From the NCBI GenBank assembly GCA_900234795.1, contig LT962688.1:2850001-2882000 (forward strand): a stretch of DNA of 32,000 nucleotides, read 5' to 3'. The stretch comes from Methylorubrum extorquens (lineage in GTDB: Bacteria > Pseudomonadota > Alphaproteobacteria > Rhizobiales > Beijerinckiaceae). The position numbers and the translations under genes are program-made. The notes under the pieces were generated by a model. That model had not been told where the DNA came from. It searched no databases and saw only the letters and a list, made by a program, of their open reading frames with translations. Within the stretch, counting starts at the first letter, position 1; each line of letters opens with the position of its first letter. This document shows positions 6,188 through 32,000 of this stretch, piece by piece.

Positions 6188-6553
6188 GCGCAGGCCTTTA
6201 TCGGGTCCGCGGGGCCGCAAAGGCCCTCGCCGTTGCCCGATCTCTGCCCCGGCGCCCGCCACCAGCGGGTTGAGGAAACACGGCCTGTCCTCGGATTCCT
6301 CGTCCGATGGTGAATGCCGGGTTGCCGCGCGCACCATCCTGTCACGTCTGCGCAGCCACGGCCGGCAGCTGCCCCTTGACAGGGGAGCACGGCGGGCATC
6401 TTGCTCCGGGTGCTTTGAGAGCCCACCTCGACGAACCGGGGCGGGTTCTTCAGCCTATGGAATCTTCCCGAACCTAGGCCCGAGCGGTGCGTCCGCCGGC
6501 TACGGGAAGAGGCGGTCCGGTGACATCCGGCCCGCGCAGCGGAGTTTGGTGAG

Positions 6554-7588: not shown

Positions 7589-7612
7589 CCTTTCACGGCC
7601 CTGACCATTTCG

Positions 7613-7647
7613 AAACGCCGTCCTTGACCGGGGCGGCGTTTTCGTTT
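7613..7647 (+). terminator. rho-independent terminator of asd
   Basis: aaacgccg (7613-7620) pairs with cggcgttt (7634-7641) and is followed by tcgttt. It starts 25 nt after the asd stop. Confidence 0.65.
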
Positions 7648-7698
7648 GGGGGATCGTCCAAAGTGGGTGCACGACCCACGACGTTGAGTGGGTTGTTT

Positions 7699-7731
7699 TC
7701 TAACATATGTAAGAAACAATCAGATGTTAGA
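7699..7731. repeat. AT-rich inverted repeat TCTAACAT-N17-ATGTTAGA
   Basis: 8-bp perfect arms at 7699-7706 and 7724-7731, inside the only AT-rich patch of the asd/vat intergenic region. Confidence 0.8.
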
Positions 7732-7915
7732 GGCGGCCCATACCCGCTTCCGACCTCTGCCAAATGCCTAACCGTCCGACAAAGCGCCCGATGCGTCTCT
7801 CATTGTGGGAGGTCGTGCTCTTCGTCCTGCTGCTCGCTTGGATCGCGGCGGTTCTGGCCACCGAGCACGGGCCGATGAAGCTGGCGCCGCCCCTGGTCCC
7901 CTACGGCACCACCGA

Positions 7916-8569
7916 TCAGCCGTCCCGCGCCACCGCTTCGAGTGCGGCGATGTCGCCGCCGCCGATCAGCGGCAGGTGAGCCGTGATCCGCTCGATCGGC
8001 CAATCCCACCACGCTACCGCCTGCAGTCGCGCGGCGTCCCCTTCCGAGAAGCGGTGGCGGACAACCTTTGCGGGGTTGCCGGCCACGATCGCGTAGGGCG
8101 GGACGTCCGCCGCCACGACCGCATGCGCCGCGACCACCGCGCCGTCGCCGATCGTGATGCCCGGCATCACGGTGCTCTGATATCCGAGCCAGACATCGTT
8201 GCCGATGCGCGTGTCGCCGCGATTCGGGAAGTTCAGCTCGCCCTCGAAGCGGCCGATCCAATCGCCGCCGAAGATCGGGAAGGGGTAGGTCGAGAGCCCG
8301 TCGAGGCGGTGGTTGCCGCCGTTCATCAGGAAGCGCGTGCCCGCGGCGAGGGCGCAGAACTTCCCGATCACCAGCCGGTCGCCGATGAAGGGGAAGTGGT
8401 AGAGGATCGCGTCGAGAAAGGCCTGCGGTCCGGCCGGATCGTCGTAATACGTATAGGCGCCGACCTCGACATTCTCCGGCAGGTCGAGGTTGCGGATGAA
8501 CGTCACGCGGCTGTGCCCGGCCATCGGGTGCAGAGCGTCCGGATCCGGGCCGATCCTCGGTGGCTGCAT
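7916..8569 (-). CDS. Vat-family (xenobiotic/streptogramin A type) hexapeptide-repeat O-acetyltransferase
   Basis: ORF 7916..8704 with the start moved to the ATG at 8569 ([10 protein letters not shown]...). The sequence [48 protein letters not shown]...[57 protein letters not shown]...AWWDWP matches the Vat/CatB-related signature. Confidence 0.8.
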
Positions 8570-8663
8570 GCTCCCTTCCCTCTCGCGTGCGGACGAGGCG
8601 GTGTTTGCAGCCGGAGATGGCCGGATCGCGGCACGGGAGGCCGGGGATCGCGCTTCGAAACGC

Positions 8664-8692
8664 TTGAATTCGCCACGCAGCGGGGTTAAGTC
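8664..8692 (+). promoter_or_regulatory. candidate sigma70-type promoter of the rimP-nusA-infB operon
   Basis: TTGAAT (8664-8669), then a 16-17 nt spacer, then TTAAGT/TAAGTC (8686-8692). It lies about 145 nt upstream of the rimP ATG. Pattern match only. Confidence 0.3.
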
Positions 8693-8733
8693 ACGGCTCA
8701 ACATTTCTGGTGCAGTCGATAGGCTGCTTGCGG

Positions 8734-8768
8734 GAGTGGGCCCCCCGGGGTCCGCTCTTTTTTATTTT
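8734..8768 (+). terminator. intrinsic terminator/attenuator in the rimP leader
   Basis: gagtgggcccc (8734-8744) pairs with ggggtccgctc (8747-8757), including two G-U pairs. It is followed immediately by TTTTTTATTTT (8758-8768). No plus-strand gene lies upstream for it to terminate, and it sits 67 nt before the rimP ATG. Confidence 0.6.
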
Positions 8769-8834
8769 CGCGAGCACCTCCAGCGCTGGATTTGCCAAGC
8801 TCAACCCCGATCGAGACCTTCGGAAAATCACAGC

Positions 8835-9590
8835 ATGGCGGAGCCTACCGAGAAACGTCTTGTCAGCGAGACCGGCGTCGCCGCGCGCGTCGCCCAGATC
8901 GTCGAGGGACCGATCGAGGGCCTCGGCTTCCGGCTGGTCCGGGTGAAGATCTCGAACACCAACGGCCGCACCGTGCAGATCATGGCCGAGCGGCCAGACG
9001 GCACGATGGGCGTCGATGAGTGCGAGGCGGTGAGCCGCGCGATCTCGCCGATCCTCGATCTCGAGGACCCGGTCGGCGACGCCTACTATCTCGAAGTCTC
9101 GTCGCCCGGCATCGACCGTCCCCTGGTGCGCGTTTCCGATTTCGAGCGCTGGGCCGGTTATGAGGCGAAGGTCGAGCTTGCCGTGCCGATGGATGGGCGC
9201 AAGCGCTTCCGCGGCATCATCGGGGTTCCGAGCGCGGACGGCACCACGGTGCCGATCGATCTGCCCGACGTGAAGCCGGGCCTTCCGAGCCGCATCGATG
9301 TGCCGCTTCGTGATCTCGGCGAGGCGCATCTTGTTCTGACGGACGAGCTGATTCGCGAATCGCTCCGCCGTGGCTCTGCCCCGCCGCAGGACGGCGAAGA
9401 GGGCGACGAGGAAGAGGGCGCGGAAGCCGAGCACGAGGCGCCGCAGGTCCGCTTCATCCCGCAGCCGAAGCGGCCCAAGCCCAAGGTGGACAAGAAGTCC
9501 GACAAGCCGGTGAAGGCGAAGAAGCCCAAGCCCGGCGGCGGCATCGTCACGAAGGCCGCCCGCCTCAAGAACCGCGACACGCTTCACTGA
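8835..9590 (+). CDS. rimP: ribosome maturation factor RimP, with a long acidic then Lys/Pro-rich C-terminal tail
   Basis: ORF 8490..9590 trimmed to the ATG at 8835 ([39 protein letters not shown]...[14 protein letters not shown]). It sits directly upstream of nusA. Confidence 0.9.
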
Positions 9591-9703
9591 TTCCGCGGCA
9601 TCGCTTCGAGCGGCCGGTACCGGCGCCGTCGCGATGCAAGAAGACCTTGAGAATAAGTCCGCTCTCGCAGCGGAAGACACGACCGAAGGAAGGACCAGAC
9701 CCC

Positions 9704-11341
9704 ATGGCTGTCGTCAGCGCCAATCGGCTCGAACTCCTGCAGATCGCCGAGGCGGTCGCCCGCGAGAAGGTGATCGACCGCCAGATCGTCATCGAGGCGA
9801 TGGAAGAGGCGATCGCGAAGGCGGCCCGCTCCCGCTACGGCGCCGAGACCGACGTTCACGCCGAGATCGACACGAAGAGCGGCGCGCTGCGCCTGTCCCG
9901 CCACCTGCTTGTGGTCGATCAGGTCGAGAACGACGCCCGTGAGATCACCCTCGATCAGGCCCGCCGCTACAACCCCGGCGCCCTCATCGGCGATGTGATA
10001 TCCGATACCCTGCCGCCGTTCGATTTCGGCCGCGTCGCGGCGCAATCGGCCAAGCAGGTCATCGTGCAGAAGGTGCGCGACGCCGAGCGCGCCCGCCAGT
10101 ACGACGAGTACAAGGACCGGATCGGCGAGATCCTCAACGGCGTGGTCAAGCGCGTCGAGTACGGCAACGTTATCGTCGATCTCGGCCGCGGCGAGGGCAT
10201 CGTCCGCCGCGACGAGATGATCCCGCGCGAGACCTTCCGCCCCGGCGACCGCATCCGCGCCTACCTGTTCGACGTGCGCTCCGAGGTACGCGGGCCGCAG
10301 ATTTTCCTGTCGCGCTCGCACCCGCAATTCATGGCCAAGCTGTTCGGCCAGGAAGTGCCGGAGATCTATGACGGCATCGTCGAGGTGAAGGCGGTCGCCC
10401 GCGATCCCGGCTCGCGCGCCAAGATCGCGGTCATCTCCCGCGACTCCTCGATCGACCCGGTCGGCGCCTGCGTCGGTATGCGCGGCTCCCGCGTCCAGGC
10501 GGTGGTCGGCGAGCTTCAGGGCGAGAAGATCGACATCATCCCGTGGTCGGAAGATCAGGCGACCTTCATCGTCAACGCGCTGCAGCCGGCCGAGGTCGTG
10601 AAGGTGGTGCTCGACGAGGAGGCCGACCGCATCGAGGTGGTGGTGCCCGACGACCAGCTCTCGCTGGCCATCGGCCGCCGCGGCCAGAACGTGCGGCTGG
10701 CTTCGCAGCTCACCGGCTGGGACATCGACATCCTGACCGAGGCCGAGGAATCCGAGCGGCGCCAGAAGGAATTCGCGGAGCGCACTCAAGCGTTCATGGA
10801 AGCGCTCGACGTGGACGAGACCGTCGGCCAGTTGCTGGCCGCCGAAGGCTTCCGCAACGTCGAGGAAATCGCCTTCGTCGATGTCGCCGAGCTCTCCAAC
10901 ATCCAGGGTCTCGACGAGGAGACCGGTGCCGAGATCCAGGCCCGCGCCCAGGATTACCTCGCCCGGATCGAGCAGGAGCAGGACGACCGCCGCCGCGAAC
11001 TCGGCGTCGAGGACGAGCTGCGCGAGATCGACGGCATCACCACCGCGATGATGGTGGCGCTGGGCGAGAACGAGGTGAAGACCGTCGAAGACCTCGCCGG
11101 CTGCGCCACCGACGATCTCGTCGGATACACCGAAGGCCGCGGCCCCGAGGCCGTGCGCCATGCCGGTTATCTCGACGGCTTCGAGCTGTCGCGGGCCGAG
11201 GCCGAGGCGCTGATCATGGCCGCCCGTCTGAAGGCCGGCTGGATCGACGCGCTGCCGGAGCCGGAGGGTGAGGCCGCCGAGGGCGACGCCGAGGACGGCG
11301 AGGCGACCGAGGAAGCAACGGCCGAGCCGCAGCAGGCTTGA
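9704..11341 (+). CDS. nusA: transcription termination/antitermination factor NusA
   Basis: ORF 9647..11341 trimmed to the ATG at 9704 ([22 protein letters not shown]...), which has a GAAGGAAGGA SD upstream. It has S1 and KH regions ([18 protein letters not shown]; [19 protein letters not shown]), two C-terminal HhH repeats and an acidic tail. Confidence 0.95.
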
Positions 11342-11361
11342 GCCAGAGGTAGGGAGACTCG

Positions 11362-12114
11362 GTGCAGGATATGATCGCGCAGGGGGGCACGGACGGCGAA
11401 TCGGCCGAGACCGGCCCGGATCTCGACCGTGGCCCGGGCCGCGGCCGGGAGCCTGTGCGCACCTGCATCGTCACCCGTAAAGCGCAGTCGCCCTCGGCGA
11501 TGATCCGCTTCGTGCTGGGGCCCAACGCCACGGCGGTGCCGGATCTGCGCGCACGCCTGCCGGGTCGCGGCGCTTGGGTGACCGCCACGCGCGCGACGAT
11601 CGAGGCCGCGGTCAAGCGCCGTGCCTTCAACCGCGCCTTCAAGTCCAACGAGGCGAAGGTCCCGCCCGATCTCGCCGACCAAGTTGCCGAGGGTCTCCGC
11701 ACCGATCTGCGTCAGGCCTTGGCTATGGCCAACAAGGCCGGTTGCGTCGTGACCGGCTTCGGCAAGGTCGAGTCGGCGATTCTCGGAGCGGTCGGCGTCG
11801 CGGCGGTGATTCACGCCAGCGATGCCGCTCCGGACGGTCGGCGCAAGCTCGCAGCTGCCTTGCGGCGGCGCTACGGCGATGCCATATCGGTTATTCCCGT
11901 TGTCGATGACCTGTCCAACACCGAATTGGACATGGCATTGGGCCGGGATCATGTGATACACGCTGCCCTTATCGCGGGAGCCGGCACTACCGGCTATCTC
12001 GCGCGTTGGCGTCGGTTCCGCACCTTCGAGGGTATGGCGTCGGCGTCTGAAGAGGACGCCCCGCTTGCTGCTGGCGCGACCGCCTTCGATTCGCACGACG
12101 ACGAATTGACATGA
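11362..12114 (+). CDS. YlxR/DUF448-type RNA-binding protein fused to an L7Ae-like C-terminal region
   Basis: RTCIVTRKAQSPSAMIRFVLGP...LPGRGAWV is the YlxR signature. It holds the conserved position between nusA and infB. GTG start with AGGGAG 5 nt upstream. Confidence 0.8.
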   Translation: MQDMIAQGGTDGESAETGPDLDRGPGRGREPVRTCIVTRKAQSPSAMIRFVLGPNATAVPDLRARLPGRGAWVTATRATIEAAVKRRAFNRAFKSNEAKVPPDLADQVAEGLRTDLRQALAMANKAGCVVTGFGKVESAILGAVGVAAVIHASDAAPDGRRKLAAALRRRYGDAISVIPVVDDLSNTELDMALGRDHVIHAALIAGAGTTGYLARWRRFRTFEGMASASEEDAPLAAGATAFDSHDDELT

Positions 12115-12178
12115 CACTCGGCCGGGCATGCCCGCCGCCGGCCGATGGGACGATGGAAACCCTCAGGGTTCAGACTGA

Positions 12179-15148
<2,970 letters not shown>

Positions 15149-15176
15149 GCGGCCCTCCCCTACCGCTCTTCCTTAC

Positions 15177-15210
15177 GGGGCCGCGGCGAAAGCTGCGGCC
15201 CCCTTTGTTT
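15177..15210 (+). terminator. intra-operon hairpin plus T-tract between infB and rbfA
   Basis: ggggccgc (15177-15184) pairs perfectly with gcggcccc (15195-15202) across a 10-nt loop and is followed by cTTTGTTT. It starts 29 nt after the infB stop. Confidence 0.5.
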
Positions 15211-15250
15211 CCAGGCACCCGCCTGATGGTTCAGCGACGTCGATCAGCCG

Positions 15251-15688
15251 ATGGCCCAAAAGCAGACTCCCTCCGGTCCCACGCAGCGTCAGCAGCGCGT
15301 GGCCGAACTCATCCGCCACGCTCTGGCCGAAGTGCTGCAGCGTGGTGACATTCAGGATCCGGTGCTCGGCTCGCATGTCGTCACCGTTCCCGAGGTTCGG
15401 ATGTCGCCGGACCTCAAATTGGCGACCGCCTACGTCATGCCGCTCGGTGGCCAGGACGAGGCCCCGGTAATCGCCGCGCTCGAGCGTCACAAGAAGATCC
15501 TCCGCCAGGAAGTGGCCCGGCGGGTGAACCTGAAATTCGCGCCCGACTTGCGTTTCCGGCGCGACGAGACCTTCGACGAGGCGGCCCGGATCGACCAGCT
15601 CCTGCGGAGCGAGAAGGTCCAGCGGGATCTGGAAAGTGCTCCTCGCGAGGACGACGAGGGCGAACCGGATTCGTCCTCGCGCGATTGA
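15251..15688 (+). CDS. rbfA: ribosome-binding factor A
   Basis: 145 aa: [22 protein letters not shown]...[19 protein letters not shown]...[19 protein letters not shown]. Conserved position after infB. Confidence 0.93.
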
Positions 15689-15896
15689 TCTCCATCCGGG
15701 CGGCTGCCGTTGCTCCGCCCCTTCGCCCAACGGGCCGCTTGATGGCCCCTTGATGGGCTGAGCCGCTCAAGAGCCTCGTCCTGGATGTCCATTCCAGGCC
15801 GATGCTCTTCGCTTTTGTTTTTGCATCGTCGTTTGCCGAGAGCCGGTGGCCACCTTTCGGGACGATGCTCTAGAGAACCCGTCGATCGAGGACAGG

Positions 15897-16922
15897 ATGC
15901 AAGACGACATTTCTTCCGAACGCGCCGGTGAAGCGCCGCAGGAGCCGCGGGGCGACCTGCGCCGGGACGGACCGCCGCGGGGCGGACGCCGCCCTCAGCG
16001 CGGCCGTCCGCGCCATGACCGGCCGAAGAAGAACGACGTGAGCGGCTGGGTGGTGCTCGACAAGGGCGTCGGCATCACCTCGACCCAGGCCGTGGCGGTG
16101 GTGAAGCGCCTGTTCAACGCCAAGAAGGCGGGCCATGCCGGCACGCTCGATCCGCTGGCATCGGGCATCCTGCCGATCGCACTCGGCGAGGCAACGAAGA
16201 CGGTGCCGTTCGTCATGGACGGGCGCAAGGCCTACCGCTTCGAGGTGACCTGGGGTGTCGAGACCGACACCGACGATGCCGAGGGTCGCCCGGTCGAGAC
16301 CTCCGACGTCCGCCCGACCCGTGAGGCACTCGAGGCGGCTCTGCCCGCCTTCGTCGGCGAGATCGAACAGGTGCCGCCGCGCTACTCCGCCATCAAGATT
16401 CAGGGCGAGCGCGCCTACGACCTCGCCCGTGATGGCGAGGTGGTGGAACTGGTGGCCCGCTCCGTGCGCATCGACCACCTCTCGGTGATCGAGCACCACG
16501 GCGACCGCACCGTGATCGCTGCGGAATGCGGCAAGGGCACCTACGTTCGTGCGCTGGCCCGCGATCTCGGCCGGGTGCTCGGCTGCTACGGTCACGTCTC
16601 GGCCCTGCGGCGCACGCGCGTGGGCCCCTTCGAGGAGGCGGCCGCCTGCAGCGTCGCCACCCTCGAAGAGAGCACCGAGATGCATCTCCACGCGGTCGAA
16701 ACGGCTCTGGACGAGGTGCCCTCGGTGGCGGTCAGCCGCGACATGGGGCTTCGCCTGATGCGCGGTCAGCCGGTGATTCTGCGCGGGCAGGACGCGCCGA
16801 TCGGCGGCAAGGCCTACGCGACTTGCGGCGGCGTGCTCGTCGCCGTCGGCGATGTCGAGCGCGGCGAACTGGTGCCGCATCGCGTGTTTCACCTCGGTGG
16901 AACGGCGGCACCGAGAAACTGA
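15897..16922 (+). CDS. truB: tRNA pseudouridine(55) synthase TruB
   Basis: ORF 15846..16922. The ATG at 15897 is preferred because GAGGACAGG lies just upstream; GTG at 15846 is possible. It carries the catalytic motif GHAGTLDPLASGILPIALGEATK. An Arg-rich N-terminal extension precedes the core. Confidence 0.93.
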   Translation: MQDDISSERAGEAPQEPRGDLRRDGPPRGGRRPQRGRPRHDRPKKNDVSGWVVLDKGVGITSTQAVAVVKRLFNAKKAGHAGTLDPLASGILPIALGEATKTVPFVMDGRKAYRFEVTWGVETDTDDAEGRPVETSDVRPTREALEAALPAFVGEIEQVPPRYSAIKIQGERAYDLARDGEVVELVARSVRIDHLSVIEHHGDRTVIAAECGKGTYVRALARDLGRVLGCYGHVSALRRTRVGPFEEAAACSVATLEESTEMHLHAVETALDEVPSVAVSRDMGLRLMRGQPVILRGQDAPIGGKAYATCGGVLVAVGDVERGELVPHRVFHLGGTAAPRN

Positions 16923-20675: not shown

Positions 20676-21140
20676 TCACCCCTGCTTTCTTCCTCGTCTC
20701 AATGGTGCCACGCCCGTCGCCGCGGGCTCGGGCGCCTCTCCTCCCGCCAGATCGTCGAGAATCGGGCAGTCCGGTCGGTCGTCGCCGCAGCAGCGTTCGG
20801 CCAGATGTTCGAGGGTGCGGGCCATCGCCTCCAACTCGCCGATGCGGCGGCGCAGGTCGGCGACATGGCCGAGCGCCACGGCCTTGACCGCGCCGCTGGC
20901 GCGGGAGCGGTCGTGCCAGAGCGCCAGTAGGTCGGCGATCTCCCGCATCGAGAAGCCGAGGTCGCGGGCGCGGCGGACGAAGCGGAGCGCGTGCAGGTCG
21001 GCCTCGCTGTACACGCGATAGCCGGCGGCCGTCCGTCCCGCGGGGCCGAGCAGGCCCGTCTCCTCGTAGTAGCGGATCATCTTGGCCGAGACGCCGGTCG
21101 CGCGGGCCGCCTCGCCGATGGTGACGGAGGGCGCGCTCAT
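20676..21140 (-). CDS. cueR: Cu(I)-responsive MerR-family regulator CueR/HmrR
   Basis: N-terminal [27 protein letters not shown] and C-terminal metal loop [15 protein letters not shown] (compare E. coli CPGDDSADCPI). Its start overlaps the copA stop by 4 nt (21137-21140). Confidence 0.9.
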
Positions 21141-23635
21141 GCGGTGCCCCCCGCCCGCTTGAGGCGCAGCGCGTTGCCGACGACGAAGACGCTGGAGAGC
21201 GCCATCGCCCCGGCCGCCAGGACCGGCGAGAGCTGCGGACCGCCGAAGACCGCGAGCCCACCGGCGGCGACGGGGATCAGCGCCGCGTTGTAGGCAAACG
21301 CCCAGAACAGGTTCTGGCGGATGTTCGCGAGCGTCGCACGCGACAGGATCACGGCCTCGACCAGCCCGGTGAGCGCACCGGACATCAGCACGACGTCGGC
21401 ACTCTCCACCGCGATGTCGGTGCCGGTACCGATGGCGATACCGATATCGGCCTCGGCCAGAGCGGGTGCGTCGTTGATGCCGTCGCCGACGAAAGCGACT
21501 GCGCCGTGGGCCTCGCGCAAGCGGCGCAGGGCCGCGACCTTACCCTCGGGCAGCACCTCGGCCTCGACTTCGGTGATGCCGAGCGAACGCGCGACCGCCT
21601 CGGCGGTGGCGCGGGCATCCCCCGTCAGCATCGCCACGGTGAGGCCGCGGGCGCGCAGGGCGTCAAGGGCCGCCCGCGCCTCCGGCTTGACCGGATCGGC
21701 TACCGCGACGAGCGCCGCGAGTCGGCCATCCACGGCGGCGAAGATGGGGCTCTTCCCCTTCTGAGCGAGACGGCTCGCCTCGCTTTCGAGCGCAGCGGTC
21801 GTCACGCCGAGCCGTTCCATGAAGCGGCGGTTGCCGAGCGCCACCGCCCGCCCCTCGACTCGCGCCGAGACGCCGTGGCCCAGCACCGCCTCGAACGCTT
21901 CGGCGTCAGGGAGTGCCCCGGCGTCGCGCGCCGCGGCGGCGATGGCGCGGGCGACCGGATGCTCGGAGCGCGCCTCGACGGCGCCTGCCAGCGCCAGCAC
22001 ATTCTCCCGGGAGAAGCCTGGCGCGGTGACGAGATCGGTCAGGCGCGGACGGCCCTCGGTCAGCGTGCCGGTCTTGTCGAGGGCGATGACGCGGGCGTCC
22101 CGCAGCGCCTGCAGCGCGGCGCCCTGACGGAACAGGACGCCGCGTTCCGCCGCCCGGCCGGTACCGACCATGATCGAGACCGGCGTCGCCAGCCCCATGG
22201 CGCAGGGGCAGGCGATGATGAGCACGGAGATTTCCGCGACCAAGGCATGTCCGAGCGCCGGCGAAGGCCCAAGGACGAGCCACGCGAGGAAGGTCAGCAC
22301 AGCGATGGCGATGACGGCGGGCACGAACCACAGGGTGACCCGGTCCACCAGCGCCTGGATCGGCAGCTTGCCGCCTTGCGCCTCCTCGACCATCCGCACG
22401 ATCCGCGCCAGCGCGGTGTCGGCACCGGTGCGGTCCACTGTGAAGTCGAAGCTGCCAGTGGTGTTGAGGGTGCCGCCGACGACGCGGGCGCCCATGCCCT
22501 TCTCCACCGGCACCGGCTCGCCGGTGATCATGCTCTCATCGACGAAGGAGGCGCCCGATGCGACGAGGCCGTCCGCCGGCACGCGCTCGCCGGGCCGCAC
22601 GCGCACCCGGTCGCCGATCCTGAGGTCGGCCGCCGGCACCTCGCGCTCGGTCGCACCCTCGACCCGCCGCGCCGTCTTGGGCGAGAGGTCGATCAGCCGC
22701 GCGATCGCCGCGCCGGCCCGCCCCTTGGCGCGCGCCTCCAGAGTGCGGCCGAGCAGGATCAGCGTGACGATGAGGACGCTCGCCTCGAAGTAGAGATGCG
22801 CCGACCCGTCCGGCAGCCACCACGGCGCGGCGGTCGAGACCAGGGAGAAGAGGTAGGCCGCGCCGGCGCCGAGGGCGACGAGGGCGTTCATGTCGGGATG
22901 GCCGCGCAACAGGTTCGGCACGCCGATCCGGAAGAAGCGCCGGCCGGGCCCGGCCAGCACCAGGGTCGCGAGCACCGCCTGAATCCAGGCGAAGCCGCCT
23001 GCGCCGAGCACGCCCGTCACCGCATGGTGGAAGCCCGGCAGCAGATGGCTCCCCATGTCGAGGACCACGACCGGGGCCGACAGAACGGCGGCGACGATCA
23101 GGTCGCGGCGGAGTGCGGCCGCCTCCCGCTCCTGCCGATCCGCGTGTGAGGCGTCCGCTGCGGCACCGAGCGCACGCGCCTCGTAGCCGGCCTGCCGCAC
23201 GGCCGCCTCGACATCGCTCAGGGAGACGGTGCCGGCGGCGTGGTGCAATTCCGCCCGGCCGGTGGCGAGGTTCACGCTCGCCGAGACAGCACCGGGAAGC
23301 GCCATAAGGGCGCGCTCCACGCGTCCGACACAGGAGGCGCAGCTCATCCCCTCGACGGAGACGGCGGTGACGGATTCCGGCACGTCGTAGCCGGCTTCGC
23401 GGATTGCCTCGACCGCCCGCGAGGGTGGTAGGCCATCCGGCAGGGTAAGGCTGGCGCGGCCGGTGGCGAGATTGACAGCGGCATTGGTCACGCCGGGCAG
23501 CGCGCGGAGCGACCGCTCGACGCGTCCGACGCAGGAGGCGCAGCTCATGCCCTCGACCGGCAGGGTCAGGCGGGACGGCCGCTCGGCCTCAACGGGCGCG
23601 GGCGGCGTGGTGTGGGATTCAAGGATCGTTTCCAT
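21137..23635 (-). CDS. copA: copper-translocating P1B-type ATPase
   Basis: 832 aa with two HMA domains ([12 protein letters not shown] twice), the CPC motif ([13 protein letters not shown]), DKTGTLT and VGDGINDAP. Confidence 0.96.
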
Positions 23636-23835: not shown

Positions 23836-25128
23836 CTAATCCCGTGCGGGCACCTCGTCCGGCATCGGTCCCACGGTATCGGGCCGATGCTCCGGCAGGC
23901 TCACGCGCACCGTGGTGCCATGCCCTGGCTCGCTCTCGATGATGAGCTTGCCCCGGTGGCGATTGAGCGTGTGCTTCACGATGGCGAGCCCGAGACCGGT
24001 TCCGCCCTGCTGGCGGCTCGACGCCGTATCGACGCGGTAGAAGCGCTCGGTCAGCCGCGGGATATGCTCGGCCGCAATGCCCGGCCCCTCGTCGCGCACC
24101 CTGAGCTCGATTCGTGCCCCGCGCCCGTCCACCCCCTCGACGCGGTGGAGCGACACGACGACCACGCCGCCGCTGCCGCCATACTTCATCGCGTTCTCGA
24201 CGAGATTCTCGATGACGCGCAGCAGCTCGTCGCGATCCCCGAGCACCGGGAGCGGGATATCGGGCCGCTCGACGCTCAACGCGATGCCACGCTTGAGGGC
24301 GAGCGGCGCCTGCATGTCGACCATCTGGCGGGCGATGCGGCCGAGATCGACCGTCCGGGTTGGCACGACGTGCTCGTGCAGCTCGATGCGCGAGAGCGAG
24401 AGCAGGTCGTCGATCAGCCCGGTCATGCGCTGGGCCTGGGTGCGCATGATGCCGAGGAACTGCTCGCGGGCGCGGGCATCGTCGCGAGCTGGGCCCTGAA
24501 GGGTTTCGATGAAACCGAGGAGGGCGGCGAGCGGCGTGCGCAGTTCGTGGCTGGCATTGGCGACAAAATCGACCCGCATCGCCTCGAGGCGGCGCGCCTC
24601 GGTGAGATCGCGCAGGAACAGCACGACGTTGGCCTCGCCGCCGCCGGGCATGTCGGACATCGGAAGGGCGCCGATCTGCACCTCGAAGGCGCGTTCGGTC
24701 GGCACGCGGGTCGCGTACTCGGTCCGCACGGCCGATCCGGTGCGCAGCACTTCCTCGATTCCATCGAGCACGTCGGGCGCGCGCAGGGAGAAGGAGAGCG
24801 GATGGCGGAGCTTGAGCCCCGGCAGAAGCCGCCGGGCGGCCGGGTTGGCCTCCATGACCACCACCCGGCGATCGACCAGGATGACGGGATCGGGGATGTT
24901 CGCCAGCAGCGCCTCGGCGATGGTGTGGCGGCGCGGTGGGCCCGCCTCGGACTGCTGCAGAACCGGCCCCTGCACGCGGCGCCCGATGAGCCCGCCGATG
25001 AAAAGGGCAAGGCTGGCGGAGACGATCAGGGCGGCATCGACCGTGCCGCCGATCGCTTCCGCGAAAACAATCACGGCCACGGCCAGGGTGACGCCGAGCC
25101 ACAGAGGGCGGGCCGGGTTGCTCAACAT
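23836..25128 (-). CDS. phoR: PAS-containing sensor histidine kinase, PhoR-like
   Basis: 430 aa with an N-terminal membrane anchor and a PAS region. The H-box is DFVANASHELRTPLAALLGFIETLQGPARDDARAREQFLGIM, the N box is ENAMKYG and the G boxes are RDEGPGI / GGTGLGLAIVKH. The H-box context matches rhizobial PhoR as I remember it. Confidence 0.75.
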   Translation of the reverse strand: MLSNPARPLWLGVTLAVAVIVFAEAIGGTVDAALIVSASLALFIGGLIGRRVQGPVLQQSEAGPPRRHTIAEALLANIPDPVILVDRRVVVMEANPAARRLLPGLKLRHPLSFSLRAPDVLDGIEEVLRTGSAVRTEYATRVPTERAFEVQIGALPMSDMPGGGEANVVLFLRDLTEARRLEAMRVDFVANASHELRTPLAALLGFIETLQGPARDDARAREQFLGIMRTQAQRMTGLIDDLLSLSRIELHEHVVPTRTVDLGRIARQMVDMQAPLALKRGIALSVERPDIPLPVLGDRDELLRVIENLVENAMKYGGSGGVVVVSLHRVEGVDGRGARIELRVRDEGPGIAAEHIPRLTERFYRVDTASSRQQGGTGLGLAIVKHTLNRHRGKLIIESEPGHGTTVRVSLPEHRPDTVGPMPDEVPARD

Positions 25129-25151: not shown

Positions 25152-26207
25152 TCACGGGTCGTTCGCGGCCGCCCGGCGCCGCAGACGCTGCATTCCCTCG
25201 TAGATGCCGAGCATCACCAAGGCGAGGGCGAAGGGAACGAGGTAGTAGCAGACCCGGAACAGCAGCAGCGAGCCGAGCACCGACTCGCGCGGCAGGTAGG
25301 ACAGGGCGAGCAGGATCGTGGCTTCGAACACGCCGATGCCGCCCGGCGCGTTGGAGGCGATGCCGAGCATGGCGGCCAGCACGTAGATCGCCAGGAAGGT
25401 CGTGAAGGGGAGGTTCAGACCCTCCGGCATCAGCATGTAGAGCACGGCGGCCGCCGCGCAGACATCGCCGATGCCGACCACCATCTGGCTGAACGACACC
25501 GTGGCGCCCGGCAATTCGAGGTGCCAATGGCGCACCTTGATGTAGCGGCGCTTCACCGAGACCCAGGCGAGATAGCCGAGCACGAGCCCGAGCGTGCCGA
25601 AGCCGAGGATCTGATTGAGGCGCGCGGTGGTGTTGACGCCGATGCTCTTGAAGGTGAGGCTCGCGAGCTGGCCCGCCTCGATGATGAGGCTGAAGCCGAG
25701 CACCACCCCCATGCCGAGCCAGAAGGTGAAGCCGGCGATCACCGTCAGCGCGGCGATCTTGGCCGCCGACAACCCGCGCTTCGAGTAGATCCAGTAGCGG
25801 ATCGTCGCTGCGGTGATGAGCGGAAAGCCGAGGGTGAAGCTCACCGCGTAGCTCGTGAAGGAGGCGAGCGCCGTGATGCGGTAGGGCAGCTTGATCCGGA
25901 GCTGGCGCAGGGCGAGCGCGTCGTAGCAGGTCAAGAACAGGTAGCTGACCGCCACGAACAGGAAGGCTTCGGTAAGCTGGGTGGCGGCGACCGCAGTGAA
26001 GGCCGCCTGCAGCTCGGCCCAACTGATCTCTGCCGAGAGCTTCCACAGAACGCCGAGCGAGGCGACGATGAGGATGAGACTGGCGATCGTGCCGATCCAG
26101 GCATAGCGCCCGCGCTTCGATGCCTTCTTCGATCCGGCATCAGCCTCGCGGTCCGCGTCGGCCGGTTCGGCCTCCGTGACCATCCTGTGCTTCCCGGCAG
26201 GTTTCAT
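25152..26207 (-). CDS. UPF0104 / lysylphosphatidylglycerol-synthase-TM-region family membrane protein (flippase-like domain only)
   Basis: ORF 25152..26477 trimmed to the ATG at 26207 (26183 is an alternative). The untrimmed ORF would overlap the upstream gene and reads as junk. Polytopic, with LTCYDALALRQL, ...IASNAPGGIGVFEA... and LLLFRVCYYLVPF, which are typical of PF03706 proteins. Confidence 0.75.
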   Translation of the reverse strand: MKPAGKHRMVTEAEPADADREADAGSKKASKRGRYAWIGTIASLILIVASLGVLWKLSAEISWAELQAAFTAVAATQLTEAFLFVAVSYLFLTCYDALALRQLRIKLPYRITALASFTSYAVSFTLGFPLITAATIRYWIYSKRGLSAAKIAALTVIAGFTFWLGMGVVLGFSLIIEAGQLASLTFKSIGVNTTARLNQILGFGTLGLVLGYLAWVSVKRRYIKVRHWHLELPGATVSFSQMVVGIGDVCAAAAVLYMLMPEGLNLPFTTFLAIYVLAAMLGIASNAPGGIGVFEATILLALSYLPRESVLGSLLLFRVCYYLVPFALALVMLGIYEGMQRLRRRAAANDP

Positions 26208-26394
26208 GTGAGAACGGTATCCGCCTCCGCTGGTCGACCGCAGGGTGTATTCGGCGCGGGTCGTCCCGAGCGGTATCGATCCCGAACCGCCCCCGCGGCA
26301 TTTAGGGGCTTCGACCGGCAAAGGCCAGCGAAGGGCCACCGGCACGGGGATGCCCTGCACTGGGAATGCGGCCGAAATCACGGTATCCTGACCG

Positions 26395-27021
26395 TCACGG
26401 CGTCGCAGCGAGATGCCTGGCCGCCTCTGCCAAACCCGCCAGGATGCGGTCGCGCACGGCGGGCGCGGTGCAGACATAGGTCGGGCTCGGATGGGGTATC
26501 GCCACCACCGGCAGTTCCGGCCTCAAGGCGGAGAGCGGCGCCGACGCCTGGCGCGCAAAGCGCCCGGCCGGCACGACCACCGCGAGCCGCGGCAAGAGTG
26601 CAAGCAGCGGCGCGAAGTATGGCGCGGCAGCGCTCGCTTCCGCTCGGCGGGGCGCCCGGTTGAGGGCGCCAGGCGCGTGGATCACCCAGGGCACGGCGTT
26701 CCAGATCAGCGTGTCCCGCCGGGCGATCCCGGCCTCGGCCAGGAAGCGGAACAGGTTGGCGGCGGTGCCGGTCGGATTGTCGCGGGAGACGAAGCCGGTG
26801 CGGCCGATCGAGGGGCCCGGCGTCTCGAGCAGCAGGAGCAGCCGCGCCTCCACGCCGCCATCGAGCGGATCGGGATCGGGGACGGCCGCGCCCCGCTCGG
26901 CGGCGATCATGCGGGCGAAGGCGCGCAGCGGCCGGACATGCGGCGCGTCGGCCGTCGACCGGCGCGCCTGGAGAAGGGCGGGATCGCGCAGGCTCTTCGG
27001 CGCGTCAGGCGAAGCCGGCAT
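26395..27021 (-). CDS. uracil-DNA glycosylase superfamily (UDG-fold) protein
   Basis: 208 aa with an LETPGPSIG motif (like GE/QxPG motif A) and a C-terminal HPSPTY (HPS motif B). Its start overlaps the PIG-L stop by 17 nt. Confidence 0.55.
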   Translation of the reverse strand: MPASPDAPKSLRDPALLQARRSTADAPHVRPLRAFARMIAAERGAAVPDPDPLDGGVEARLLLLLETPGPSIGRTGFVSRDNPTGTAANLFRFLAEAGIARRDTLIWNAVPWVIHAPGALNRAPRRAEASAAAPYFAPLLALLPRLAVVVPAGRFARQASAPLSALRPELPVVAIPHPSPTYVCTAPAVRDRILAGLAEAARHLAATP

Positions 27022-27766
27022 CGCGCAGACCCGGCGGCACCCGGCCCTGCAAGCGGAAGCGTTCGACGCCGTTCTCAGCGGAAAGACGCGTGCGCAATCC
27101 GTCCGGCCCGCCGAACTGGAAGCCGATCTGCGACCCGTAGGCGGCGCAGGCCTCCGCCTTGCGGTGCTCGGCCTCCGAATCGAGGCGCACGACCTGCTCG
27201 GGCCAGTGCTCGAAGATCGACCTCAGCGGCTCTTTCGGCTCGGTGTTGCGCACCGTGTAGGGGAAGTCGCGCCACCACAGCACCGGCAGGGGCGGCTGCG
27301 CGGCGCGGAATGCGCGCACGACCTGCACGTGATCGACATGGCCGCCGACGGCCTGTGGCGCCAGGATCAGATCCGGCCCGGTATCGGCCACCAGCCGCTC
27401 GAAGGCGTCGGCGAGGTTGGCCCCGATCCGGTCGTCGGGGCGAAGTTCGGCGAACAATTCCGGCGCCGATGCGTAGCCGCGATGCGGCGCCTCCCGGAAC
27501 GGCAGGTGGACCGGCTCTTCGATGCCGAGCGCACGGGCCGCCGCGCGATCCTCCTCGCGGCGCAGGGCCATGTAATCGACCTCCGGCCCCAGCCCCTTGT
27601 CGAGCTGACAGGCCAGAGCGAAGCCGCGCGGGTCCCGCACCGATGCCGTGAAGATCGTCGCTATGACGACCTGCCAGCCCTGCGCGGCAAGCCGCGCCAG
27701 CGTGCCGCCTGCCGAGAAAACCGCATCATCGAGATGCGGCGAGATGGCGAGTGCGGTACGCGTCAC
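27005..27766 (-). CDS. PIG-L / LmbE family de-N-acetylase
   Basis: ORF 27005..28042 trimmed to the GTG at 27766 (VTRTALAISPHLDDAVFSAGG...). It has the zinc motifs PHLDD and GGHVDHVQV. The GTG overlaps the TGA of the upstream GT4 gene (GTGA). Confidence 0.85.
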   Translation of the reverse strand: MTRTALAISPHLDDAVFSAGGTLARLAAQGWQVVIATIFTASVRDPRGFALACQLDKGLGPEVDYMALRREEDRAAARALGIEEPVHLPFREAPHRGYASAPELFAELRPDDRIGANLADAFERLVADTGPDLILAPQAVGGHVDHVQVVRAFRAAQPPLPVLWWRDFPYTVRNTEPKEPLRSIFEHWPEQVVRLDSEAEHRKAEACAAYGSQIGFQFGGPDGLRTRLSAENGVERFRLQGRVPPGLRDAGFA

Positions 27767-29001
27767 AGCAGGTGCGGCTCCTTGCGGAAGCGGCAATCGG
27801 CGTCGATCGGCAGCGTGTCCGGGACATCCGTGTGCGGGCGCTCCCCGGCGACCTGCGCATAGACATCCATGATCTGACGGCCGACGGCGGTCCAGGAATA
27901 GACCCGGCGGCACTCCTCCAATCCAACCTCGGCGAGACGCTGGCGCAAATCGTCGTCCTCCACCACCCGCCGAAGGGCGGCGGTGAGCGCCCGCACATCG
28001 CCGGGATTCACCAGCAATCCGTTCTCTTCGTCCCGCAGGCAATCCGAGACGCCGACGGAGTGGGTCGAGACCACCGCGAGCCCGGCGGCCATGGCCTCCA
28101 GAATCGTGTTCGAGAAGCCCTCCGCGTAGGTCGGCGAAACGAAGACGTCGGCCTCGCGGTAGAGGTCCGGCACGGTGTCATAGTCGGCGTAGCCGGTGAA
28201 GCGGACCTGCGCCGAGGTGAAGCCGATGGCGTCCGCTTTCGCGCGGGCGGACTCGACATCCGGTCCGATGCCGGAGATCGTCGCGTCGAACGGCACGCCG
28301 GCCTCCCAAAGCCGCTCCAGGGCGTCGAGGAAATCGAGCACGCCTTTCCGGCGGTCGACCCGGCCGTGGTAGAGCAGCCGCACCGGCTCCTCGTCCTCAC
28401 GCTCGGCCTGGAAGCGTTCTCCTGGGGTGAAGCGGGCGGTATCGACGGCGCCGGGGACGATGGCGAAGCGAGTGGGATCGGAGCCGAGCCGGTCACACAC
28501 CTCCTTCAGGAAGGATTGCCCGCCGATCAGCAGGGCGTTGGCATGGGCCAGCACCTCGACCATCGCGCGGCGATGCGTCTCGCAGCAGGAGCCGACCCAG
28601 TGGCCGTCGCCGCCCTGGATCGAGACGACCGTCGGCACGCCGAGCCGCTTGCCCGCCAGCAACACCGCCCAGCCGGTCGGGTAGCCATATTGCGCGTGCA
28701 GCACGTCGAACGGCTTCTTGGCGTGCTCGGCGCAGATCGTCGCGACGATCGTATCGATGTCACGCTCGAAATCCCCGCCCTCCTGCTCGCCCTGCTGTTC
28801 GAGGCCGATGACATGGACGCCGGGCACGGCGGGCGGCGGGCCGCCGCCATAGACGCGCGTGCCGAATTCGTCGCCGCGATATTGCGAGATCATCGTCACG
28901 TCGTGGCCGGCCCCCGCCACCTCGCGCAGAAGGTTCTGCGCATAGACGCTCATGCCGGAGATCGCCGGGAAGTAGCGGCGGCTGACGAAACAGATTCTCA
29001 T
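27763..29001 (-). CDS. GT4-family (GT-B, retaining) glycosyltransferase
   Basis: 412 aa with N-terminal MRICFVSRRYFPAISGMSVYAQNL and a C-terminal EX7E region YAEGFSNTILEAMAAGLAVVSTHSVGVSDCLRDEENGLLV. Its ATG overlaps the stop of the TIM-barrel gene (ATGA). Confidence 0.9.
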   Translation of the reverse strand: MRICFVSRRYFPAISGMSVYAQNLLREVAGAGHDVTMISQYRGDEFGTRVYGGGPPPAVPGVHVIGLEQQGEQEGGDFERDIDTIVATICAEHAKKPFDVLHAQYGYPTGWAVLLAGKRLGVPTVVSIQGGDGHWVGSCCETHRRAMVEVLAHANALLIGGQSFLKEVCDRLGSDPTRFAIVPGAVDTARFTPGERFQAEREDEEPVRLLYHGRVDRRKGVLDFLDALERLWEAGVPFDATISGIGPDVESARAKADAIGFTSAQVRFTGYADYDTVPDLYREADVFVSPTYAEGFSNTILEAMAAGLAVVSTHSVGVSDCLRDEENGLLVNPGDVRALTAALRRVVEDDDLRQRLAEVGLEECRRVYSWTAVGRQIMDVYAQVAGERPHTDVPDTLPIDADCRFRKEPHLL

Positions 29002-29891
29002 GACGTGGGCAGCCCGGGCATCGCGGCTTCGCGCGGTGTGGTGTCCGGCATCGGAAGTCCGGGGCCGGGACGGCGGCAGGTGCGGAGATAATCGAGGGAT
29101 TGGCCGACCATCACGTCGGCGCGGTGCGACTCGCGCGAAAGCTCCACGCAGACGAGTTTGCTGAAACCGATCGCGTCGAGCGCGTCCAGAACGGCAGGGA
29201 CATCCATGTCGCCCTCGCCGAAGGGCAGATGGATGTGCTCGCCCCGCTTCATGTCCTCAATCGCCACGGTGCCGAGGCGCGGAGCGAATTCGTGCACGGC
29301 CGCGGCCGGATCGCGCTCCCCCGTGACGAGGCAGTGACCAGTGTCGAGGGCGAGCGAAAGGCCCGGCAGGTCGATCGCGGCAAAGTCATCGAGCGTCTCG
29401 ATCAGCATGCCGGGTTCGGGTTCGAGGGCTGCGACGACGCCCTTCTCGGCGGCGAAGTCGGAGACCTCGCGCAGCCCCTCGGTCAGCCATCCCCGCGCCT
29501 CGCTGTGGTCGACGCCCGGCTTCGGCACGCCGGCCCAGAACGAGACGGCTTCGGAGTTCAGGATCTTTCCGATCTCGATCGCCCGCTTGAGGAAGCCGAC
29601 GCGCCGTGCCCGGCCCGAAGCGTCGGCGGTGACGAGCGTCGGCTCGTGCTTGGCGGTCGGGTCGAGCAGGAAGCGGGCGCCGGTCTCGATCACCGAACCG
29701 AGTTCGAGCCGGTTCAGGAGGCTAGCAATGCGATCAGCCTCGATAACCCAATTCTCGGCGAAGGGGTCGAGATGGTGGATGTCGAGGGTGAGCGCGACGC
29801 CGTCATAGCCCGCATCCTTGATGAGGCGAATCGCATCCTCGATGCGGTGGTTGGCGGTGCCGTTGGTGTTGTAGGCAAAGCGCAAGCTCAT
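28998..29891 (-). CDS. xylose-isomerase-like TIM-barrel protein (sugar phosphate isomerase/epimerase, AP_endonuc_2 fold)
   Basis: C-terminal 297 codons of ORF 28998..30980, starting at the ATG at 29891 (MSLRFAYNTNG...). Motifs include ALEPEPG, LDTGH and HLPFGEGDMD. The ATG overlaps the YcaO stop (ATGA). The upstream part of the 660-aa ORF is an alternate frame of the YcaO gene. Confidence 0.85.
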   Translation of the reverse strand: MSLRFAYNTNGTANHRIEDAIRLIKDAGYDGVALTLDIHHLDPFAENWVIEADRIASLLNRLELGSVIETGARFLLDPTAKHEPTLVTADASGRARRVGFLKRAIEIGKILNSEAVSFWAGVPKPGVDHSEARGWLTEGLREVSDFAAEKGVVAALEPEPGMLIETLDDFAAIDLPGLSLALDTGHCLVTGERDPAAAVHEFAPRLGTVAIEDMKRGEHIHLPFGEGDMDVPAVLDALDAIGFSKLVCVELSRESHRADVMVGQSLDYLRTCRRPGPGLPMPDTTPREAAMPGLPTS

Positions 29892-31507: not shown

Positions 31508-31539
31508 CGTTACCCTGTTTGCGGCTCGCCGGAACTCAC

Positions 31540-31668
31540 CCAACCCACGGCCTCATCCTGAGGTGCGAGGCGAAGCAGAGCCTCGAAGGATCCTCCAGTT
31601 CCCACGCGGTCGCTGGAGGATCCTTCGAGGCCGCTCGCGCGGCACCTCAGGATGAGGGCATGGGTTGG
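31540..31668. repeat. 129-bp imperfect palindromic (REP/MITE-like) element
   Basis: The left arm ccaacccacggcctcatcctgaggtgc...gcctcgaaggatcctccag (31540-31598) pairs with the right arm ctggaggatccttcgaggc...gcacctcaggatgagggcatgggttgg (31613-31668). The outer 27 nt match at 25 positions, the inner 19 nt are perfect, and there is a divergent internal bubble. It generates the spurious + ORF 31519..31737. Confidence 0.85.
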
Positions 31669-31694
31669 ATGTGCCGGTCTCCTCCCAAATCTCG

Positions 31695-32000
31695 TCAGGC
31701 CGCGTCGCGGCCGGCCGGTTTGCCCGCCGCCGCGTAGGCGCGGGCGATCAGGCGCATGGTGTGCAGGTCGCGCTCGGCGTCCCAGGCGGTGCGCTCGTCC
31801 CGTTCGCGCAGGGCGCGGCCGAAGGCGCGCACCTGTTCGAGGAAGGGCGAGGCCGTCGTGTCGAAGGCGATGTCCTCGACCCGGCCATCCGCCCCGTTCG
31901 TGAAGGTGACGCTGCCGCCCGCGGTCTGGCCCATCGTGTCGGTCGCGGTGAGCATCCCACCGGTGCCAACCACCTCCAGCCGGCGGCGCGGCAGGGCGTC
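31695..32000 (-). CDS. Gfo/Idh/MocA-family oxidoreductase, C-terminal 101 codons; the gene starts beyond the window end
   Basis: The frame stays open to position 32000 (…LPRRRLEVVGTGGMLTATDTMGQTAGGSVTFTNG...ASPFLEQVRAFGRALRERDE...LHTMRLIARAYAAAG). This C-terminal alpha/beta dimerisation-domain pattern is typical of the family. Call made from a fragment only. Confidence 0.5.
   Translation of the reverse strand, partial: DALPRRRLEVVGTGGMLTATDTMGQTAGGSVTFTNGADGRVEDIAFDTTASPFLEQVRAFGRALRERDERTAWDAERDLHTMRLIARAYAAAGKPAGRDAA

Follow-up and report, generated by a model that had tools for sequence, protein, structure and literature searches.

A 32,000-nucleotide stretch of the Methylorubrum extorquens genome (GenBank assembly GCA_900234795.1, contig LT962688.1, positions 2,850,001 to 2,882,000; hereafter the window) carries on its minus strand three overlapping genes for a xylose-isomerase-like TIM barrel protein, a GT4 glycosyltransferase and a PIG-L/LmbE-family deacetylase. 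Our comparative analysis revealed that this trio is the 3′ end of an eight-to-nine-gene, translationally coupled operon. We consider it fairly likely that the operon is a conserved pathway for a soluble small molecule, and that it builds an amino-sugar glycoside of a cyclitol. The full gene order is cyclase, HD-domain phosphohydrolase, S-adenosylmethionine (SAM)-dependent methyltransferase, GFO/IDH/MocA oxidoreductase, metallo-beta-lactamase (MBL)-fold protein, YcaO-domain protein, TIM barrel, GT4 and PIG-L. Other Methylobacterium genomes show the same series with myo-inositol-phosphate synthase (Ino1) as the cyclase and with no MBL-fold gene. The window edge cuts the oxidoreductase gene, and the methyltransferase, HD and Ino1 genes lie upstream of it.

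Using an alignment of the GT4 clade as query against one genome per species, we recovered 57 orthologous loci (E values 1e-72 to 1e-107), which a score gap separates from 23 generic GT4 loci that served as controls. The orthologous loci share one gene order across at least eight phyla and include Armatimonadota (Abditibacterium), Myxococcota, Bacteroidota/Rhodothermota including Salinibacteraceae, Chloroflexota, Gemmatimonadota, Actinomycetota (Geodermatophilus, Blastococcus, Micromonospora) and Alpha-, Beta- and Gammaproteobacteria. HD and GFO/IDH/MocA genes are present in every locus with enough upstream DNA, and the PIG-L gene lies directly 3′ of the GT4 gene in 56 of the 56 loci with downstream DNA. 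None of the 23 controls in the same scan has a PIG-L gene. It seems exceedingly improbable that the overlaps reflect plain operon compaction with no functional link and that the GT4 serves polysaccharide synthesis, even though four-nucleotide overlaps are common in GC-rich genomes and the GT4 goes under ‘glycogen synthase’ or ‘cell wall biosynthesis’ in public annotations; the gene order kept across phyla, the PIG-L linkage and the score gap all speak against it. The public names of the operon proteins in the window are all generic, and our literature searches, which paired YcaO with inositol, cyclitol, mycosporine, PIG-L/LmbE or extorquens, turned up no account of the cluster and no paper tying YcaO to inositol, cyclitols, PIG-L or M. 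extorquens. Apparently, the operon is uncharacterised and widely transferred. Scans for sigma-70 promoters and terminators gave nothing above shuffled expectation, and none of the core proteins has transmembrane-like segments, which points to a soluble product.

The first-pass annotation described three consecutive stop/start overlaps that lock the trio together, and the minus-strand sequence bears out all three at the places given. At the first, positions 29891-29888 read ATGA, with the YcaO TGA at 29890-29888 and the TIM ATG at 29891-29889. No obvious Shine-Dalgarno sequence was seen in the window upstream of the GT4 start at 29001, which fits termination-reinitiation. Genes in bacterial operons overlap most often by just such four nucleotides (ATGA/GTGA), so that three cases in a row are unremarkable alone. 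Their conservation across phyla exceeds chance: the YcaO/TIM junction is a four-nucleotide overlap (−4) in 33/41 loci, the TIM/GT4 junction in 26/47 (−1 in 7 more) and the GT4/PIG-L junction in 21/57 (−1 in 5 more and a gap of 0-20 nt in 20), and the overlap at the GT4 start persists even if the gene before it is MBL, YcaO or GFO. The same −4 dominance is found at the HD/methyltransferase (33/45) and MBL/YcaO (23/33) junctions. Thus, the coupling is real and conserved, yet it belongs to the whole operon and not to the trio alone, so that the overlaps of the earlier description stand and the trio as a self-contained module does not.

The start codons at these overlaps are not mis-assigned, since later starts would delete conserved N-termini. 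The TIM protein starting at ATG 29891 has L3 in at least 90% of orthologues and an invariant R4, followed by a near-invariant AYNTNG, and its next in-frame start is TTG 29885. The GT4 ATG at 29001 begins the conserved MRICFVSRR, which would be lost from the next start, ATG 28953. Likewise, the PIG-L GTG at 27766 lies 10 codons ahead of the PHLDD motif, and the next start, GTG 27640, would lose it. The five window proteins from the uracil-DNA glycosylase (UDG)-like protein to YcaO are full-length identical to SOR29718.1 to SOR29722.1 of Methylorubrum extorquens with the same starts, PIG-L corresponding to SOR29719.1 and YcaO to SOR29722.1. A longer PIG-L from a recurrent in-frame start at −34 was considered and rejected as a by-product of an invariant Cys codon near the GT4 C-terminus. 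Coordinates of the features are collected in Table 1.

Table 1. Features of the operon and its surroundings (window coordinates unless a locus is named; L numbers denote individual loci).
Feature	Position	Strand	Details
GFO/IDH/MocA oxidoreductase, C-terminal 101 codons, cut by window edge	31695..32000	-	C-terminus of the GFO protein in L003, 68% identity
Nested palindromic element (MITE/REP-like; miniature inverted-repeat transposable element/repetitive extragenic palindrome), 135 nt	31537..31671	.	Inverted repeats in the GFO-YcaO spacer
YcaO-domain protein, 539 aa	29888..31507	-	ATG 31507; Pfam YcaO 3e-47, 162 bits over the full profile
YcaO/TIM overlap ATGA	29888..29891	-	GGAGG 6 nt upstream
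Xylose-isomerase-like TIM barrel, 297 aa	28998..29891	-	Pfam AP_endonuc_2 (PF01261) 1.8e-33
TIM/GT4 overlap ATGA	28998..29001	-	TIM TGA, GT4 ATG
GT4 retaining glycosyltransferase, 412 aa	27763..29001	-	Pfam Glycos_transf_1 / Glyco_trans_4_4
GT4/PIG-L overlap GTGA	27763..27766	-	GT4 TGA, PIG-L GTG; AAGGAG 11 nt upstream
PIG-L/LmbE-family zinc deacetylase, 253 aa	27005..27766	-	GTG start; Pfam PIG-L 4.4e-20
UDG-superfamily protein, 208 aa	26395..27021	-	Pfam UDG 4.6e-11; overlaps the PIG-L end by 17 nt
MprF-like flippase-domain-only membrane protein	25152..26477	-	NCBIfam bifunc_MprF positions 3-304, 198 bits; Pfam LPG_synthase_TM
Two YcaO genes of L005	8393-9862 and 12188-13711 (in L005)		

Both members of the GT4/PIG-L pair appear catalytically competent, as the first-pass annotation had proposed from the EX7E motif of the one and the PHLDD and HVDH motifs of the other. 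In the GT4, E294 and E302 of EX7E (window 28122-28096) recur in at least 93% of about 58 orthologues, as do R214 and K219 of the Arg/Lys phosphate-binding motif that goes with the GT-B fold. The same level of conservation holds for H11, D13, D14, H143, D145 and H146 of PIG-L, which lie in PHLDD (residues 10-14, window 27739-27725) and HVDH (residues 143-146, window 27340-27329) and match the pattern of a His-Asp-His zinc triad plus catalytic Asp (PHxDD ... HxDH). The PIG-L protein scores 72.9 bits against Pfam PF02585 (gathering score 28.2), and its best relatives in the PDB are Dbv21 and Orf2* (1e-18), which deacetylate N-acetylglucosamine (GlcNAc) on the teicoplanin pseudoaglycone. The conversion of GlcNAc-X to glucosamine (GlcN)-X that had been predicted for the pair, with X as the aglycone, is supported by their strict linkage.

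The GT4 itself belongs to a small and distinct clade: in an exhaustive search of cluster representatives, full-length relatives of 35-55% identity are followed by generic GT4s at about 30%. Its signature, of which we know no earlier description, consists of QGGDGHWxGxCCxxH and a C-terminal CRFRxxPHLL. C139, C140 and H143 (window 28573-28587) are invariant in a loop on the acceptor side, as is C403 in the C-terminal tail (27793-27795), and these four residues may form a zinc site that ties the tail to the N-terminal domain. In an AlphaFold2 model with a pLDDT (predicted local distance difference test) score of 87, the Cys-Cys-x2-His loop is the sole segment below 50. A Foldseek search with this model returned MshA (3c48 and 3c4q, E value 2e-26) on top, then BshA and sucrose-phosphate synthase. 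The clade of its own, the motif and these nearest structures support the view that the enzyme is not an ordinary lipopolysaccharide or exopolysaccharide transferase, and the clustering with such transferases apart from any deacetylase, which would have spoken against the earlier proposal, was not observed.

Since MshA and BshA act in thiol synthesis, the operon might be thought to make a mycothiol- or bacillithiol-like low-molecular-weight thiol, with a GlcN-inositol scaffold to which a sulfur group is added later. Ino1, an MshA-like GT4, a phosphatase and a PIG-L protein are indeed the first four steps of mycothiol synthesis, the methyltransferase recalls N-methyl-bacillithiol, and the YcaO protein could install sulfur, its nearest solved structure being MJ1094 of M. 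jannaschii, whose relatives carry out McrA thioamidation (NCBIfam methan_mark_1). However, the cysteine ligase MshC/BshC and the acetyltransferase MshD were found in no locus, the scores against equivalog hidden Markov models (HMMs) are far under their cut-offs, and thiol pathways have no use for the dehydrogenase or the TIM barrel. Moreover, those Actinomycetota that have the operon would be making mycothiol already. A thiol product is therefore unlikely in our view.

A cyclitol glycoside is suggested by the first gene of the operon. Ino1 stands there in 40 loci, and in four loci from unrelated lineages (L005, L036, L047 and L060) the same position is taken by a sugar-phosphate cyclase resembling 3-dehydroquinate synthase (DHQS), which scores 470-576 bits against NCBIfam PRK06203. 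That two unrelated carbocycle-forming enzymes occupy one position argues for a cyclitol as the aglycone X, an assignment that we regard as supported. A similar swap between Ino1 and the DHQS-like EboD has been proposed for the ebo cyclitol cluster (bioRxiv 10.64898/2026.05.21.724671).

The TIM barrel covaries with the cyclase. It is present in 40/40 loci with Ino1 and in 0/4 with the DHQS-like enzyme (Fisher p = 7e-6, with phylogeny not corrected for), and is thereby tied to the inositol route. Being the least conserved member of the trio, it is absent from 11 loci, of which nine have a readable gene upstream of the GT4 (L005, L007, L012, L015, L024, L026, L036, L047 and L060) and two were recognised by flank search (L021 and L035). 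In L024 and L026, the MBL-fold gene overlaps the GT4 start. The protein scores 116.8 bits against PF01261 (gathering score 31.1), and its profile matches UlaE, MJ1311, IolE, IolI and tagatose 3-epimerases in the PDB. Without exception, 20 orthologues share E157, D183, H219 and E250, and we take these residues to be the Glu-Asp-His-Glu metal site that is usual for the fold. The upstream oxidoreductase is represented by the complete protein of L003, which has GFO_IDH_MocA domains and IolG as its best NCBIfam match (109 bits). The TIM barrel and this oxidoreductase had been read in the first-pass annotation as pointing to an oxidised or isomerised sugar or a cyclitol, and the cyclases of the 40 and four loci favour the cyclitol. 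We infer that the two enzymes give the inositol ring the keto or deoxy form in which the DHQS-like cyclase provides its product from the outset. Furthermore, the HD profile weakly matches YfbR/HDDC2-type phosphohydrolases, a likeness that would fit the removal of a cyclitol phosphate.

YcaO was left out as a partner in the earlier reading, which we correct here: by a phmmer census, it is present in almost all loci, in most cases with GFO and TIM on either side and in some behind PIG-L. Its acidic ATP/Mg residues E106, E109 and E221 are at least 93% conserved in 54 orthologues. Three Armatimonadota loci (L005, L007 and L015) have two YcaO genes flanking the GT4/PIG-L pair and lack both TIM and methyltransferase; in L005, one of the loci with a DHQS-like cyclase, the genes that come next encode a GT28 (MurG-like) glycosyltransferase and a thiamine pyrophosphate-dependent enzyme. 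Directly ahead of YcaO, most lineages apart from Methylobacterium encode a further protein (about 275 aa), in which the metallo-beta-lactamase signature is weak and a CxxC...CxxC ribbon at the N-terminus is invariant; no homologue of it was found anywhere in the window. PDB sequence searches with single MBL or HD proteins returned nothing, and profile searches gave weak matches. In L059, a metagenome-assembled genome of Salinibacteraceae, one 809-aa open reading frame (6535-8964) joins an MBL-fold part (residues 16-306) to a YcaO part (residues 327-804), which suggests that the two work as partners, an assembly artefact also being possible. Similar fusions in L029 and L038 proved to be shadow-frame artefacts, leaving L059 as the only genuine single open reading frame.

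Such a YcaO protein, with its ATP-binding domain intact, could also be taken as the mark of a glycosylated RiPP (a peptide made on the ribosome and then modified post-translationally), in which YcaO introduces an azoline, thioamide or amidine into a ribosomal precursor and GT4 and PIG-L add an amino sugar. So far as is known, characterised YcaO enzymes all act on peptide backbones, and teicoplanin, whose GlcNAc is deacetylated by the nearest relatives of PIG-L in the PDB, is a peptide natural product. We nevertheless give this reading a slim chance. An E1-like/Ocin-ThiF protein, TfuA or an azoline dehydrogenase was found in none of the loci, and the overlap-packed operon leaves no room for a precursor gene. 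No small open reading frame conserved across genera lies within 1.5 kb of the operon, a more distant precursor being conceivable. A peptide substrate is thus not supported by partners or by nearby reading frames, and the remaining conserved genes encode cyclitol and sugar enzymes (Ino1 and the IolG-like and IolE/IolI-like proteins).

Several observations weigh against the cyclitol glycoside pathway that we favour. To our knowledge, all characterised YcaO enzymes act on peptides, so that a small-molecule substrate would be unprecedented. No enzyme reaches a curated equivalog cut-off, and substrate assignments therefore rest on context: the GT4 scores 88.5 bits against MshA (TIGR03449, cut-off 462.5), PIG-L 20.7 against MshB (224) and 36.7 against BshB1 (182.5), and the TIM barrel 36 against IolO (300), 22 against IolE (290) and 27.5 against the UlaE-type model (317). 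The YcaO score against SagD (TIGR03604) is 94 bits versus 219, and the cut-off for McrA thioamidation is likewise missed. The phmmer alignment of GT4 with MshA spans residues 141-384 and leaves the N-terminal acceptor-binding domain unaligned. That the GT4 may use the MshA substrates, UDP-GlcNAc and 1L-myo-inositol-1-phosphate, is suggested by context, namely Ino1 in 40 loci and the unfailing presence of PIG-L downstream. The DHQS-like protein passes the model of genuine 3-dehydroquinate synthase, which makes its product uncertain, and four loci (L019, L024, L026 and L056) start at HD with no adjacent cyclase. Finally, our locus counts take no account of phylogeny or horizontal transfer.

On the cyclitol glycoside reading, a pathway in the following order can be proposed. 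Ino1 would cyclise glucose-6-phosphate to inositol phosphate, with the DHQS-like cyclase making the carbocycle in the minority lineages. The MshA-like GT4 would then move an N-acetylhexosamine, most likely GlcNAc from UDP-GlcNAc, onto the cyclitol or cyclitol phosphate; the HD-domain phosphohydrolase would take off the phosphate, and the PIG-L zinc deacetylase would remove the acetyl group and expose the C2 amine. On the inositol route only, the GFO/IDH/MocA dehydrogenase would turn a ring hydroxyl into a ketone, beside which the presumably metal-dependent TIM barrel would catalyse an enolisation leading to dehydration, isomerisation or epimerisation, as IolE and IolI do. After tailoring by the SAM methyltransferase, YcaO, together with the MBL-fold protein in most lineages, would spend ATP on activating the oxygen of a carbonyl or amide. 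This would let a nitrogen nucleophile, for which the amine exposed by PIG-L is a plausible candidate, form a new C–N bond (amidine, enaminone or ring closure). The overlaps would couple translation of the whole operon. In a more specific version, which we put forward tentatively as a possibility that is rather doubtful as yet, YcaO would phosphorylate a carbonyl or amide oxygen, either in the oxidised cyclitol or in an acyl group, and the C2 amine would close the C–N bond, giving a sugar-fused oxazine or an enaminone/amidine chromophore and thereby a new class of glycosylated, cyclitol-derived UV screen or stress protectant.

A compound of related build may be methylobamine, a UVA-absorbing metabolite of Methylobacterium which, according to a review, has a galactopyranose fused into a pyrano-oxazine, an iminoacetic acid and five further linear carbons (PMC13567104). 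We found no biosynthetic genes assigned to it. Since condensation of the amine of a hexosamine O-glycoside on an adjacent aglycone carbonyl would give a fused oxazine of the kind described there, the operon is a candidate for its synthesis, and we speculate that methylobamine is the operon product or a relative of it. It is not evident how a six-carbon cyclitol would yield the five-carbon chain, and the link is speculative. A photoprotective role would fit the hosts, which include phyllosphere Methylobacterium and Sphingomonas as well as Geodermatophilaceae, Abditibacterium, Salinibacteraceae and surface-water Bacteroidota.

Downstream of the trio, the window encodes two further proteins on the same strand, of which the second, an MprF-like membrane protein, bears on the nature of the product. 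It has the flippase domain and no synthase domain, and its start is probably downstream of 26477. Lying two genes downstream of PIG-L, it raises the possibility of a cationic aminoglycolipid: GT4 would put GlcNAc on a membrane lipid, either phosphatidylinositol (compare PIG-A/PIG-L in glycosylphosphatidylinositol (GPI) synthesis) or phosphatidylglycerol (compare GpgS), PIG-L would deacetylate it and the flippase would move it to the outer leaflet. GpgSDF of P. aeruginosa (PMC12713373) and HexSDF of C. difficile (PMC10128005) share this logic of glycosyltransferase, deacetylase and flippase, and Ino1 could supply phosphatidylinositol synthesis. However, the flippase gene was found in L003 and in 4/57 scan loci, all Methylobacterium (among them L023, L027 and L040), and is missing from the other 53. 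It is a neighbour outside the core: in relatives, an intergenic gap stands between it and the UDG-like gene, and both genes are missing in Methylobacterium sp. 4-46. The operon contains no CDP-alcohol phosphatidyltransferase or other lipid enzyme, its core proteins are devoid of transmembrane segments, the GT4 scores 63.7 bits on the GlcN-phosphatidylglycerol synthase model of GpgS (NF053787, cut-off 480), and the PIG-L family differs from that of GpgD and HexD. Because the flippase is lineage-specific, we have demoted the aminoglycolipid to an improbable explanation and retain the soluble cyclitol glycoside.

The first of the two downstream proteins is a divergent member of the UDG superfamily, annotated as uracil-DNA glycosylase. 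Its gene was seen behind PIG-L in Methylobacterium-type loci and, outside these, in a single Falsiroseomonas locus (L058), and the loci that carry it are largely those without an MBL-fold gene. It is a lineage-specific accessory outside the core, and one speculative idea is that it binds a uracil nucleotide. Another lineage-specific neighbour is found in Acetobacteraceae, where a 614-aa GT2/GT21-type glycosyltransferase gene (L016, 12054-13898; also L011 and others) stands just 3′ of PIG-L and may extend the pathway. In the window strain, the spacer between GFO and YcaO holds a 135-nt insertion, as compared to a spacer of 23-25 nt in the relatives L001 and L003. The palindrome has outer arms of 37 nt (84% complementary) and inner arms of 19 nt (100% complementary), its core 16-mer occurs twice against 0.03 occurrences expected, and it could lower the read-through that arrives from the operon's upstream half. 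Genes for a PAS-HisKA histidine kinase (23836-25128) and a copper P-type ATPase (21137-23635) lie 3′ of the MprF-like gene and are the same neighbours in several Methylobacterium (L003). The window also contains the housekeeping row rimP-nusA-infB-truB (8490-16922), which places the operon in the core chromosome with no obvious island, and its GC content is uniform at about 0.65-0.75 throughout.

The pairing of GT4 with PIG-L is familiar from mycothiol, bacillithiol, aminoglycosides and GPI anchors. What appears to be new is a widely spread operon that joins cyclitol synthesis to YcaO, and a YcaO protein committed to a sugar-cyclitol pathway would, if true, widen the known scope of its superfamily. 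In addition, four poorly annotated families gain hypotheses about their function, namely the HD protein, the MBL-fold protein with its zinc ribbon, the TIM barrel and the Cys/His-bearing GT4 clade. Methylorubrum extorquens is a model methylotroph in which knockouts and metabolomics are routine, and the operon is shared by many bacteria of sun-exposed or dry habitats, so that the identity of the product and any protection that it gives against UV or desiccation are directly testable.

Among known systems, the mycothiol enzymes MshA, MshA2 and MshB of Actinomycetota, acting with Ino1, come close to the proposed pathway: there, too, Ino1, a retaining GT4, a phosphatase and a PIG-L protein give GlcN-inositol, the EX7E motif and the His/Asp/His zinc triad recur in the GT4 and PIG-L of the operon, and MshA is the top structural neighbour. 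In contrast to the msh genes, which are dispersed in genomes, the operon genes are clustered, coupled and found in many phyla; they lack MshC and MshD and add a GFO dehydrogenase, TIM barrel, methyltransferase, MBL-fold protein and YcaO. BtrM/BtrD and NeoM/NeoL, which transfer GlcNAc onto the aminocyclitol 2-deoxystreptamine and deacetylate it to paromamine, likewise place a GT4 and a PIG-L protein on a carbocycle made by a sugar-phosphate cyclase, and a DHQS-like cyclase is shared with four operon loci. Compared by description in the case of BtrM/BtrD, they differ in that the operon has no aminotransferases, hence no aminocyclitol route, and mostly uses Ino1. Dbv21 and Orf2*, the best solved sequence relatives of PIG-L, deacetylate a GlcNAc O-glycoside of a secondary metabolite; the match is modest (HMMER about 70 bits over about 220 residues), the aglycone is another one and no nonribosomal peptide synthetase lies near the operon. 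In GpgSDF and HexSDF, a glycosyltransferase followed by a deacetylase exposes an amine and a flippase completes the set, as the MprF-like gene near the operon in the window might suggest; unlike PIG-L, their deacetylases belong to COG3233/CE4, the GT4 has no orthologue there and the flippase is not conserved with the operon. IolG, IolE and IolI of inositol catabolism combine a GFO/IDH/MocA enzyme with xylose-isomerase-like TIM barrels to form a ketone and then enolise on the inositol ring, whereas the operon pair sits with biosynthetic Ino1, a glycosyltransferase and YcaO and scores far under the respective cut-offs. Finally, the ebo cluster (EboA-F; prenylated cyclitol, thallusin, scytonemin export) shares a DHQS-like cyclase and a xylose-isomerase-like TIM barrel, and its cyclase is replaced in some lineages by Ino1 plus isomerases or dehydratases (bioRxiv 10.64898/2026.05.21.724671); the operon has no UbiA prenyltransferase, TatD or alkaline phosphatase, whereas ebo has no GT4, PIG-L or YcaO.

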